A stretch of 63,019 nt of DNA from Catajapyx aquilonaris (Eukaryota), in the NCBI GenBank assembly GCA_000934665.2, contig JYFJ02002109.1:1-63019 (forward strand), written 5' to 3'. Made by a program: the position numbers and the translations under genes. This document shows positions 11,706 through 16,994 of this stretch, piece after piece (the stretch's first letter is position 1; each line of letters starts with the position of its first letter). Under the pieces are notes generated by a model, which did no database searches, was not told the DNA's origin, and worked only from the letters and a program-made list of their open reading frames with translations.

Positions 11706-11784
11706 GGGAAGTGGGAGGTCCTTTTCGTCCCACGTCCACCACGGTACTGTTTAATAAGCCAAGAAATCGGCTTGTTTGTCACTC
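11706..11784 (+). promoter_or_regulatory. Putative promoter of the GIFG prepropeptide gene (GGGAAGTGGGAGGT motif, AT-rich box, TCACTC initiator-like)
   Basis: The 14-mer at 11706-11719 is identical to 16878-16891; TTTAATAA near 11750; TCACTC at 11779-11784. Confidence 0.55.
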
Positions 11785-11841
11785 TCCAGTCATTTTAGCA
11801 CCGCTTTTCCAACAGCACAGATCAATTCCGTCGGCCTCAAG

Positions 11842-12542
11842 ATGAAAGTCTCTATTCTCGTGATCCTGTTGGCCTGTTCAATGATGGCAACCATCGTGTA
11901 TTCTGCTCCAAATCCCGTTCCTGATGAAGAAGGTGAGGAATCTTTTTGCCTTATTATTTTTTCATGCTATAGGGGAAGACGATTATATCAATGTTGTATA
12001 CTTACTAAAATATGATTTTGCGTCTTTATAAAGGGCAAGCATGGAAAGTATGGAATAACCAAGATTCCAGTGGGAAATGTCGTCCAATTAGGGGGGAAAA
12101 TTATGGAGAAAATTTTCCAATATATTACAATATTGCTTAGTTCTTTGTCGGAAAGAGTGTTTCTGCTAGTGCAGATTTTCTCATAAGTTCTCTCGTGTGT
12201 TTCCATGTATGGTTATCTGCTATTGACTGCTTACGCAACATATATCAGAATAACGAAAAACCCAGTCTTCAGTCATGCTCCAAAAACGCATGTGCAATGT
12301 GAATTCATTTCCCCCCAACATTTTACTCAGCAGATCGATCTATGGATGAGTTCTACGAGTACAACGACAATGGCGGCGTTGTTCACAACGACAACTTTGA
12401 AGACATGGCTGATGAATACTTCAGACAGAAGCGCGGAATATTCGGCGGCTCCAGCAGCAGTTCCAGTTCCAGCAGCTCCGAAGAGAATAACAGAAGGCAA
12501 CAGCGATATGCTTCTCGGGAAAAGCCTCTTCATCACATTTAA
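11842..12542 (+). CDS. Orphan secreted prepropeptide, about 100 aa: signal peptide, acidic pro-region, RQKR furin site, GIFGGSSSSSSSSSSEENNRRQQRYASREKPLHHI; exons 11842-11932 and 12331-12542
   Basis: MKVSILVILLACSMMATIVYS|APNPVPDEE; phase-1 GTGAGG donor; CAGCAG (NAGNAG) acceptor in frame with ORF 12342-12542; AATAAA at 12551. Confidence 0.85.
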
Positions 12543-13659
12543 TCGCATTTAATAAAGTTTCTGCATGACCGTAGATGCTTTTATTCTGCCTAGCACACTC
12601 ACATGTACTCTGGGATGGAATAAAAATAGTTAGCAAAAGAGAATTATTTACAAACGTTATTTTATTACAAGTCTGAGTCAGTGATTGTGGGGCAGTTGAC
12701 TTTAGGGCAGCAGTCAGGATGGGGCAAGGACTCGTCGGAAGAGACGACGCAGCCGTCTGGAGCGTGGATGTCAGGACAACTGTAACAAAGCAGGTGACAT
12801 TACACTGTACATACGATAATTATATGCTCTTTTTTCTGCAACGATTTCGACTTGCCTTCTGTAAATTAGCTTGTGATTTCGGCACATCACACTTCGACAG
12901 TCGCTCATCTGCAGATTCGACCCTGAACTGAGAAGCAGGTTCTTTTGTGGAAGCCAACAATCAGAACCATCTGAAAGGTTTGATTGTTATTGGCCGGTGA
13001 ATAGAGAGAGGCAAAATAAATGTTTTCTTACCTGTGCCTTGACAATAAGTCACATAGAAAAGGCAGAGTGACAAAATGGCTATTTCCAGTCGCAACATGG
13101 CTCTTGCAGCGTCACTGACACTAGCAGGTCTCATCAACAGTTTGCAATTATCAGTCCCGCCGGCTTGCCAGGAAACGTGAGCATATACTGTAGACAGGCT
13201 TGTGGGTTGCAGTGATAATTTTTGTCATGAAACGCACTTGCTGTATTGTGTAACTGCATAATTTGCTTTAACATTATACAATACCATAGAATGGAGTGGT
13301 GAATGGGGACAGGAACTTCCCGCTTTATTTATATTTCATTTTTTAAAGTACAATTTTATGCTTATGAGTAGAGATAACAACAAGCAGCTTTATCTGAGAA
13401 ATAAAACACTAATGGGCGCTTTCAACATTAACAGAATTATTTTATGATCATGCACATCGTTTCCGGTATGTTAGAAAAATCGCCTTTTTTTTAAAAAAAA
13501 ACAACTCCAGACTCAATTTCCTCCAGAAACTTCTATCACACTTCAGATACCCTTTACCTGAGAAACTCCGTAGGTGTCCGGTTAGCCTGTGTTCTCCCAC
13601 ATTTCTGATAAGTTAAAATAGTTTTCCAGGAAATAAATATCTTCGAAATTTTGTTTTCA

Positions 13660-13990
13660 GGTGGGGTGAAAAGGAACAATGGCTAATGCACAAGCCGGAT
13701 CCACATGCACGAAATTGCAACATAGGGATGCGATGGGGTGAATAGGAACACTCCCATTGAAAATAGTGAGTGTCCCTATTCACCCCATTTTGCAGGTGAA
13801 GGGGGACAATATGTTTAGAATTTAAATAAAATGCATTTAGCAACAACCCCCCTTACTAAATATTACAGAGCCATTTCATAACAATCATAGCAACATTTTA
13901 AATTTAAAAACCACATAAAACGGTACAAATATATGAGACATTTGCAAAAAACACACTAAAATCTGCCCATATTCACCCCATTTTACGGTA
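13660..13990. mobile_element. DNA-transposon (TA-ending) MITE fragment
   Basis: Right end TATTCACCCCATTTTACGG-TA, with internal direct and inverted copies of GGGGTGAATAGGAACA; left TIR not found. Confidence 0.5.
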
Positions 13991-14123
13991 GCTTTGAATA
14001 TTGGGTGTTGCGTAAGGACAACAAAGAGTCACCCATTTGATTGAGACATTGTACTTTCTAGTGTGCCCACATGGTCCCATTGACTGTTAGAGATCGCTTG
14101 GGTTCATCCAGGGCATATGACCC

Positions 14124-14642
14124 TTATTCATCCTTCTTTCTCATCCGATAAACGATGAATATGACCAGAAGAATGGCACACAGGAAACTCGCCACTGCTC
14201 CTCCTATTACAGCTGCAAGCAGTCCAGGCTGGGAGAAGAATGACGAAGGCGGGTCATTGCGTTTCTCACCCCAAACTCCAGATCCTATGTGATTTGAATC
14301 CTGACGAGTTTCATCTTCGTCGTGTTCTTCTAAGCTCTTCTCGTGAGGAACCACCATTGTCTGTGGAACGTGTCCTTTATCGTGTGTCTTGCCTTCATTG
14401 TTTATCCTCTTCTCTTCCAGTTTCTTTTCTGATGGATATAAGCCATCACCGTCTTCGTCGTCCGGTCCAAATCCGGATCCGCTGGACTCCAGGTCATCTC
14501 TCACCTCTCGGTGCCCTCCTGATCCTTCTAGGTCATCGTGTATGTACATTTCCTCTTTGTTCCACGACCTGCCCGACTGTTGTGAGGCGGTGTATCCCAG
14601 CAGGACTACACTGAGCAGCAAAAGGGTGAGTGGAAGGTGCAT
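14124..14642 (-). pseudogene. Sdc: Intronless syndecan copy (probable retrocopy) truncated by an in-frame TAA in the C1 region; could still encode a tail-less 172-aa membrane proteoglycan
   Basis: Signal peptide, D/E-flanked SG glycosaminoglycan sites (DLEGSG, ESSGSGFGPDDED), TM FFSQPGLLAAVIGGAV..LCAILLVIFIVYRMRKKDE, then TAA, then in-frame GSYALDEPKRS; no EFYA end. Confidence 0.85.
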
Positions 14643-15639
14643 CTCCTATACAGTGTTCTGGTTCACACGGGGCCACGGCAGGGAACACAGTCAACTATTA
14701 GGCAAACTCAAACTATTCTCAAACTATTACACTATATACGTAGTATGCGGGCGGGCGAGAGGAGGCCGAGCACGGACGGACGGACGGTCAAGAGTGGTGT
14801 GTGGTGGGAGGGGTGTGCGTGAGATGAGCACTACCAACTCAGGGCAAGAAACAGCGGCGGAAACGACAAGGCCTGCTGGGATGAGGAGGAGAAATTGTGA
14901 GAAAAAGGAGGAATGCAAGTGGGAAAAGGGAGGAGAAGGGCAGGGATATGAAGAAGAAGAGAGGCCAGGGGACGGGGTTACTATGCTGTAACAACCATTC
15001 CCTGCCAATAAACACTGCTATTTTTATACTCGTATTCAACTTCTCTTTTGTTATTGTCGCAGTGACACAAGCATTCATAGTCTGATAATAATATTTTAGG
15101 GTTATAAAAACTATGCGAATATGGATGTAATATACTACCAGGTGACCCGTTCTTCGTGTACGGGGATTGATAAATTAAATAAGTTTGTAAAACTTGCATA
15201 ATTATAGGCCTACTGTGTAGTGAGCTAAGTCAGAGTGACTGAAAATGCTCTATGCTCACGGGAGCTGATGGCTTCGAACATGTCACATGAGCAAGACCTG
15301 GTTCGTTTGGTCCAGGTTTGGTGCGAATAAGGGTGTGTAGAACCAGTATTTCATGAAATTAAGGCTTGCATTAAATGAGGGATGTGGACCGTGTGGTGAA
15401 AAAAAGGTGATAACCTTCATTTTTGTCATTTTTTACCTAAACTCCTAGCAACTATATAATTATGTAAAAGACACGACAAATTAACAGTTTCTGGTAAATA
15501 CTCAAGTTCACGTATCATGCACAAGACTACCACACGGACTATAGACCAAAACCTGCATTCCCTTTCCCTATGATTTGTGAAGAGAATGAAAACTTCAATT
15601 CGCTCTCCTGAAAAATTACACTTTTGTGGGTTATCAGTC

Positions 15640-15975
15640 TCATATGCTTTCTCTAAGTCTACAAATGCAACATAGCCCTTCTTGTTTACAGCTAAATGCT
15701 TTTCTATCACGAGTCTCATACAGAATATCATTCTGATCTACACCCCTTACCTGACATAAACCCACTCTGAATATAATTCAGTATTCTCTGACTTGTGACC
15801 CTCTTAACTCTTTCTATCAAAACCTTGGCATACACTTTTCCTGGTACAGTTAACATACTAATGCCACGATAGTTCTTACAGTCACACACGTCTCCCTTAC
15901 TCTTACACAGAGGTACTACCATAGCATCCCTCCAATCCCTAGGAACTACACCATTCTCAAAAGAAACCATACATA
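15640..15975 (-). mobile_element. RTE-clade non-LTR retrotransposon reverse-transcriptase fragment (frameshifted)
   Basis: VPRDWRDAMVVPLCKSKGD..CKNYRGISMLTVPGKVYAKVL..QSGFMSGKGC / IFCMRLVIEK..YVAFVDLEKAYE. Confidence 0.9.
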
Positions 15976-16877
15976 AATATATTAGCTAAAAAGTAACTAC
16001 ATTTTGTGAAGCCCACACCATGATTTATTTCTACTTCGTTAATAATAAATAGTCAGTGTGACAAAAATTATTATTCAAATGCATTATTGTGTTAGCGAAA
16101 TTAAGGCAATTAAGTCTGTAATGGTAATACACTAAAATGATCTCCAACCGAGTTAATAAAGATGCTATCATGCTTAACATTAACCAAAATTAACACTCAT
16201 ATCAGTGCGTAGCTATTCGAATTATATGGCAGTTATTTTTGCTGCCTATGGCTGATAATAAATTACTTAAAAATTGAGCCTTACCTTAACAGCACCTGTA
16301 TGACGTGGTTTCAATAGAACGGTATTTTTGGGAATGTATGTACAATATACTGACATTCCCTCTTACATAGCACCTCATACTGTATAGTCATAAGTTTTTC
16401 TATATAGTGCGTTATCATCCTTTATCTATACTCGCATAAAATAATCCTTAGTATTATTATTATTATTTTGAGAAGCGAGAGTGCAAAATATTTACATCAA
16501 ACCTCTCCCATTGACATCAAACAAGAGTAAATTAATTTTGCCGGAAACCTACTGGAAAAATCCTGCTAATAATTTGTTATGAATTAATCCCCCTTTAATC
16601 AAGAGACAGTAAAAGGGCATCAAAATGACATCATTCAGCATGCAGCAAAATCAGTCCGTCACAGACACCATTAAAATTTTACCATGCTTTCAATGCATGA
16701 ATAATTGTTCAAAAATAGAACGCAAAAAAGAGTTTACATATCGCAAAATTGCAAGTGTTGGTGGACGCGATTGAAAGTTAGGTGCGGGCAAAAAAAAAAA
16801 ATCTGATACTCTCTTCCTGAGTCTGCGTAGCTGTGATTATCCCTTATTGCAGCCCTATCTGAATTTCCGGCCGCCAT

Positions 16878-16994
16878 GGGAAGTGGGAGGTATCAATATA
16901 TCCAGCCAATGAAACATGTACAAGTATTCACCCTGGTGTATCGAAATTGCGCAATTATATAAATCAAACTTGACGCTTCCGGCTCCCATCACTC
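16878..16994 (+). promoter_or_regulatory. Promoter of the polyprotein gene: GGGAAGTGGGAGGT motif, TATA box, TCACTC initiator-like
   Basis: 14-mer at 16878-16891; TATATAAA at about 16956-16963; TCACTC at about 16989-16994; ATG at 17023. Confidence 0.65.

Follow-up and report, generated by a model that had tools for sequence, protein, structure and literature searches.

A 14-bp word common to the predicted proximal promoters of two genes for predicted secreted precursors in Catajapyx aquilonaris

For the human PTCH1 gene, the nine-base word GACCTCCCA has been described as BS1, a functional accessory GLI site that enhances but alone does not activate, and reporters carrying GLI sites tolerated changes at position 5 but depended on positions 4 and 6 (PMC2830928). 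Among the CPR cuticle genes of Anopheles, a TATA box was found in 145 of 153, each with a putative initiator (PMC2259329), and phase-1 introns have been described as over-represented close to where signal peptides are cleaved, in animals generally (PMC1626468). The locust Lom-SG-SASP has the layout of a neuropeptide-like precursor, yet is made by salivary gland cells and not by neurons (PMC5533153). Here we compare with these systems a stretch of 63,019 nucleotides from Catajapyx aquilonaris (contig JYFJ02002109.1 of assembly GCA_000934665.2, referred to as the window), in which two genes encoding predicted secreted precursors (tentatively referred to as gene A and gene B) carry the identical 14-mer GGGAAGTGGGAGGT in their predicted proximal promoters. 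The literature searches turned up no account of either the motif or this system, and the nine papers that contain a 12-base string of the motif deal, by their titles, with other topics.

The two copies of the 14-mer, at 11706-11719 and 16878-16891, match perfectly, and identity does not extend beyond the 14 nt on either side. They have the same orientation, are no more than 115 nt away from the predicted start sites, and begin 136 nt before the ATG of gene A (11842) and 145 nt before that of gene B (17023), so that both the identical word and the distances given for it in a preliminary description of this DNA hold. At up to two mismatches the window contains a single further match, at 62676 on the minus strand; this two-mismatch copy (62676-62689) is inside an open frame (62432-62812), presumably a retroelement remnant, and by eye is not in a promoter.

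For this promoter pair, the match exceeds chance. A common word of at least 14 nt appeared in 0 of 12,000 dinucleotide shuffles of the 200-nt promoters and in 7 of 12,000 of the 300-nt promoters, 64 of 184,509 random pairs of 200-nt windows shared such a word, and the local alignment score was equalled in 3 of 500 shuffles. Beyond the 14-mer there is no promoter homology, the alignment being no better than shuffles: the next longest same-strand word common to both promoters is 8 nt, and once the 14-mer is masked, 473 of 500 shuffles score as high as the 300-nt promoters and 64 of 200 as high as the 1-kb promoters, on which ground extended promoter homology was rejected.

Because the 14-mer is an isolated, perfect island in DNA that is otherwise unalignable, a selected site is plausible, and we lean slightly towards the reading that it is a local shared site for a C2H2 zinc-finger activator, and that a single type of secretory cell likely expresses both genes. 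(How probable we call this and the other readings is a matter of judgement.) Under this mechanism, a C2H2 zinc-finger activator that reads G-rich DNA would bind the 14-mer in both proximal promoters, gene-specific bZIP sites (CrebA-type in A and C/EBP-type in B) would act together with the motif on the TATA/initiator core, and both genes would be turned on, and hence co-expressed, in a single type of secretory cell. As candidates for the bZIP sites, the gene A promoter has a TGACGTG at 11670..11676, which we take to be of CrebA type, and the gene B promoter has the palindrome ATTGCGCAAT, presumably of C/EBP type. The word CACGTC occurs twice in the gene A promoter (11670-11676 and 11731-11736), one occurrence being the full CrebA-type site. 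As for the origin of the two 14-mer sites, an ancient tandem duplication kept by selection and a separate rise appear about equally probable. If real, the shared site would add one more example to a well-known pattern, it being ordinary for nearby co-regulated genes to have an upstream site in common. It would also tie two orphan secreted precursors to one cell type and give a 14-bp starting point from which to search for the factor and the tissue.

The activator may be of the GLI/Ci class, an assignment that is a lead and not a result. Both copies contain a 9-bp match to GACCACCCA in which C is kept at positions 4 and 6: the minus strand at 11712-11720 reads GACCTCCCA, a GLI-type site with one substitution (5T), and that at 16884-16892 reads TACCTCCCA, which is two substitutions (1T and 5T) from the GLI consensus. 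The 3' nine bases would thereby correspond to a known GLI variant in gene A and to a weaker one in gene B. Copy A has the exact nine-mer of PTCH1 BS1 on its minus strand and copy B has one further change, at position 1; in the present case there is one candidate site per gene, with no cluster, and the shared word runs six bases further 5' than the GLI site (PMC2830928). Similarly, both copies match 9 of the 10 positions of the Glis3 site (G/C)TGGGGGGT(A/C), the variable last base of which fits with a C in copy A and an A in copy B (PMC2275160). The comparison with transcription factor motifs that had been proposed earlier has produced a GLI-type match in both copies, although it accounts for part of the 14 bases only and comes with no cluster of sites.

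Besides GLI, several other candidates were considered and rejected, with consensus sequences taken as generally known. For Su(H), only loose RTGRGAR fits were found (92 in the window), with no high-affinity site within 500 nt of either ATG. NF-kB sites and the CATATG E-box are absent from both 500-nt regions, and Ets cores are present in both of these regions but very common (213 in the window). A G-quadruplex was dropped by eye, since copy B has too few G runs.

A number of observations weigh against a shared activator site in general and a GLI site in particular. The GLI match covers only 8-9 of the 14 bases, copy B departs from the consensus twice, and GLI-like sites are a common background, with 75 at no more than two mismatches in 63 kb. 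There is no GLI cluster, as only one site with at most one mismatch lies near gene A and none near gene B, and sites with at most two mismatches number two per gene in about 2 kb, compared with a background of 1.19 per kb. With respect to Glis3, the Methods of the published study give the 10-base core of copy A as a mutant reporter on which Glis1 and Glis3 were inactive and Gli1 was still active, and the single mismatch in our copies is the very change in that non-responsive mutant; the Results of the same study disagree, naming another mutant sequence (PMC2275160). Further, the distance between the motif and the predicted start (the A of TCACTC) differs by 38 nt between the genes. The similar distances to the ATG arise because the predicted 5' untranslated regions (UTRs) are of unequal length (61 nt in gene A and 32 nt in gene B), and the apparent agreement is misleading. 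The promoter pair was also picked after the fact, and about nine exact direct pairs of at least 14 nt are expected by chance in a 63-kb window (4-16 in 30 simulations), so that only the location of the motif is notable.

The genome-wide occurrence of the word adds to these points. In the 286 Mb searched, the exact 14-mer has 12 copies, compared with 5 for the reversed control and 1.1-4.5 expected from Markov models trained on the window, and sites with at most one mismatch number 627, compared with 342 for the control. Since the 42 one-mismatch variants (615 sites) average about 14.6 copies each against its 12, the 14-mer is not special among its neighbour words, and many of the 10 other exact copies lie in G/A-rich runs. 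From the 627 sites, the 12 exact copies and 78 of the 615 one-mismatch sites, 90 in total, were scored (three at contig starts were left out) for a TATA box, an initiator and a signal-peptide-like start downstream, by a hydropathy heuristic that was shaped on genes A and B, which therefore pass by construction. Only these two passed; none of the 88 other sites (10 exact and 78 one-mismatch) precedes such a start, and a hydrophobic start lacking TATA box and initiator follows 4 of the 88, whereas the opposite side gave 2 of 90. With 64 vs. 95 and 65 vs. 102 occurrences, the combination of the 9-base core and a TATAWA after it falls short of its reversed control. Examination covered 100 of 129 core-plus-TATA matches (duplicates included), 29 being dropped as duplicates or members of repeat families, and among the 99 loci scored (60, plus 39 scorable of 40) gene B alone has both initiator and signal peptide. 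For comparison, 26 of 595 background TATA boxes pass the signal-peptide filter, five of them with an initiator.

The scan for enrichment at signal-peptide genes suggested in the preliminary description was therefore negative, with 0 of 88 other sites and the core-plus-TATA combination below its control. A large gene battery carrying the motif is unlikely, and we rejected a genome-wide one, the exact, one-mismatch and core-plus-TATA searches being negative in the samples scored; a handful of further motif genes could be missed by sampling. The 14-mer showed no sign of being a genome-wide code for secretory genes. The co-regulation by one factor that had been put forward at first remains the most likely reading locally, with no genome-wide reuse in the samples checked.

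Instead of a functional site, the match may be a coincidence, in which two promoters near each other contain, by accident and with no shared function, a purine-rich word that is common in the genome. The nine or so chance pairs per window, the 627 sites within one mismatch, the other exact copies in G/A-rich runs, the unequal spacing to the predicted start and the lack of a second notable same-strand word (the next being 8 nt) all fit this explanation, as does a selection effect, as very many windows were read and only matches reported. Set against it are a pair-specific probability of about 3-6 in 10,000 and the fact that the pair is not arbitrary, both genes encoding the same unusual kind of acidic, KR-processed, predicted secreted precursor. 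On these grounds we regard coincidence as a possible explanation, though a somewhat doubtful one.

The core promoters resemble each other in layout. In both, a TCA-type initiator follows some 30 nt after a TATA-like box, and the initiator regions have a 7-nt word in common. The box is canonical in gene B only, the gene A promoter having no TATAWA, and the distance from box to TCACTC is 28 nt in gene A and 31 nt in gene B; the spacing of about 30 nt in the preliminary description is therefore correct, whereas its AT-rich or TATA box is non-canonical in gene A. As in the CPR cuticle promoters of Anopheles, a TATA or variant box is followed by a TCA-type initiator downstream, but TCACT is outside the four common initiators given for these promoters (TCAGT, ACAGT, GCAGT and TCATT), the box of gene A is non-canonical, and the start sites here are predicted only (PMC2259329). 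The TATA box, initiator and phase-1 intron are generic for secreted-protein genes according to the descriptions of these features (PMC2259329, PMC1626468), so that the common layout says less than it first seems to.

The products of genes A and B are alike in kind, being acidic and Ser-rich, with KR sites, S-x-E motifs and X-Pro dipeptides past the predicted signal peptide. The signal peptides were called by hydropathy and by eye only; to this extent, and as first described, exon 1 of each gene encodes a hydrophobic N terminus and a single phase-1 intron is present, and both genes have an AATAAA within 10 nt past the stop (at 12551 in gene A and 18207 in gene B). The gene A product (99-100 amino acids) has 21% Asp+Glu, 15% Ser, three S-x-E motifs and a Cys-free mature part, its exon 2 encoding an acidic Tyr-containing segment, one RQKR site, and poly-Ser followed by EE. 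Its C-terminal peptide (12435-12486) starts past RQKR and carries ten serines and then EE, a stretch that in our view resembles casein-type phosphoserine clusters. The gene B product (368 amino acids) has 26% Asp+Glu, 14% Ser and 31 S-x-E motifs, and its mature part is also Cys-free. X-Pro dipeptides are substrates of dipeptidyl peptidases, and S-x-E is a Fam20C site.

In searches with the exon-2 translations, we found no homologues of gene A, no credible homologues of gene B, and no homology to a known peptide family. A weak, repetitive match of gene B to P0069 (E = 1.4e-4, 28%) was judged compositional, and its Pfam matches were rejected as repeat artefacts, 19 of 20 having no stretch that passes alone. 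Both genes are single-copy, as no further copies of either gene or of its promoter were found in the genome. These orphan peptides are the more interesting part of the locus than the motif. With a predicted signal peptide (by hydropathy) and dibasic sites that would release short peptides, the products have the layout of neuropeptide precursors. However, since the locust SG-SASP has the same layout and is a gland product, this layout is insufficient to call genes A and B neuropeptides (PMC5533153). Lom-SG-SASP likewise has a signal peptide and many non-amidated peptide copies between Lys-Arg sites, and its orthologues are given as unknown; the gene B peptides exceed its own by far in acidity and S-x-E content, and the likeness is one of layout (PMC5533153).

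Whether genes A and B are kin bears on how the 14-mer came to be shared. Their protein similarity is borderline. BLASTP of A against B gives E = 0.45, in near agreement with the earlier statement that the proteins do not align by eye, but a weak colinear alignment does exist, the full-length score being equalled by 0-76 of 2,000 shuffles according to the matrix used and the way of shuffling. When A is compared with the first 100 residues of B, signal peptide fixed, 11-351 of 3,000 shuffles score as high in 12 tests, again borderline. Profiles of the gene B repeat unit fail to single out A, the best being reached by 217-285 of 2,000 shuffles and the other profiles doing worse. At the nucleotide level, 353 of 500 shuffles score as high as the alignment of exon 1, 80 of 500 as high as that of the intron, and 181 of 200 as high as that of exon 2 with the 3' UTR. 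The intron position is not common to both genes, being about eight columns apart in the alignment, at residues +10 (A) and +5 (B) from the predicted cleavage sites; the phase is the same but generic. In view of the weak colinear alignment, the two genes may share an ancestor.

One may nevertheless regard the 14-mer as the passive relic of an old tandem duplication, its last unmutated stretch and functionless. Genes A and B lie on the same strand 5.2 kb apart, with a syndecan retrocopy between them so that they are not direct neighbours, and this arrangement, like the full-length colinear alignment, suits such an origin. The separate alignments of masked promoters, exon 1, intron, and exon 2 with 3' UTR, which are all at shuffle level, do not, and neither do the BLASTP result, the gene B unit profiles that miss gene A, and the differing intron positions; moreover, neutral DNA would not be expected to stay perfect over 14 nt amid randomised flanks. 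We therefore consider a passive relic very unlikely, and the earlier suggestion of an old duplication in which the promoter outlasted coding similarity finds no support in the masked promoters.

A more elaborate reading would see in the locus a small, lineage-specific cluster of genes for orphan precursors of acidic phosphopeptides (poly-Ser-Glu-Glu in A and 31 S-x-E sites in B). Having arisen by ancient duplication, their products would be secreted together by one gland for calcium or mineral handling, and a private zinc-finger site of 14 bp, exceeding any GLI site in length, would drive the genes and be the clearest remaining sign of their common origin. Among arthropods, such a locus would be the counterpart of the casein/SCPP clusters. 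We think this unlikely.

A repeat origin was considered as well, in which both copies would be eroded fragments of a miniature inverted-repeat transposable element (MITE) whose inverted arms contain AAGTGGGAGGT, that is, 11 of the 14 bases of the motif. The arm word is abundant, as a 19-mer holding these 11 bases has 90 copies in the genome compared with 0 for the control, often in inverted pairs 120-180 nt apart; a profile built from 30 copies matches a fragment in the window itself (9309-9337, E = 6e-5), and copy B is preceded by CCATG, as is the MITE arm a few bases further upstream. The same profile, however, matches neither promoter up to E = 10, by which this origin is largely refuted; 3' of either copy the sequence does not run on into the MITE, and copies A and B share the same two departures from it. 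The chance that the copies are MITE fragments is accordingly slight in our judgement, and the possibility raised at the outset that the motif is a common repeat fragment is not borne out, as the profile misses both promoters in spite of the 11 bases in common. The family itself is palindromic and MITE-like, about 250-400 bp long with TA-rich ends, and one 19-mer word of its arms is present in 90 or more exact copies; examples are L087/L088 (C682:72241-72442), L093/L094 and L095/L096.

Table 1. Positions of promoter elements, coding exons and the intervening retrocopy at the gene A and gene B loci (positions are those of the window).
Feature	Position	Strand	Remarks
14-mer copy A	11706..11719	+	-75..-62 relative to predicted start site
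14-mer copy B	16878..16891	+	-113..-100 relative to predicted start site
Gene A TATA-like box TTAATAA	11751..11757	+	non-canonical; 31 nt past motif
Gene B canonical TATA box (TATAAA at 16958)	16956..16963	+	64 nt past motif
Gene A initiator-like element	11779..11785	+	predicted; start site from spacing only
Gene B initiator-like element	16989..16995	+	predicted; start site from spacing only
TGACGTG, bZIP-type site	11670..11676	-	gene A only
Perfect palindrome ATTGCGCAAT	16946..16955	.	gene B only; abuts TATA box
Gene A coding exon 1	11842..11932	+	predicted signal peptide, three X-Pro dipeptides, phase-1 donor
Gene A exon 2	12331..12542	+	tandem acceptors, start 12331 or 12334
Gene B coding exon 1	17023..17092	+	predicted signal peptide, two X-Pro dipeptides, phase-1 donor
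Gene B exon 2	17162..18198	+	KR/KKR sites flank twelve acidic repeat units, which are of two types
Intronless syndecan retrocopy	14058..14642	-	between A and B; in-frame stop in cytoplasmic tail; Pfam PF01034, E=3e-16

The syndecan retrocopy is a processed pseudogene, and its intron-bearing parent is found on contig C779 in at least four separate exons, which are 74-90% identical to the retrocopy. Elsewhere in the window, a small two-exon gene at about 580-980 on the minus strand, presumably cuticle-protein-like, has a canonical TATA box and encodes Tyr-Glu-Gln-Pro-Lys-Tyr repeats; it is possibly frame-shifted by eye and does not carry the 14-mer. An array of low-density lipoprotein (LDL)-receptor class A repeats at 6789-10154 contains internally duplicated exons, with parts of the introns duplicated too. 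Downstream of gene B are two housekeeping neighbours, namely a gene with a galactose-binding-like domain and weak Pfam matches (19619-19963, plus strand), which we take to be NR2C2AP-like, and Rgp1 (21689-23337, minus strand). For an Rgp1 exon, the best named matches are arthropod proteins with no more than 57% identity, and in a tree built from this exon the animal takes no definite place among the arthropods. Long inverted repeats at 3130-3613, 37927-38066, 45936-46891 and 47270-47528 are likely MITE or mariner-type elements.

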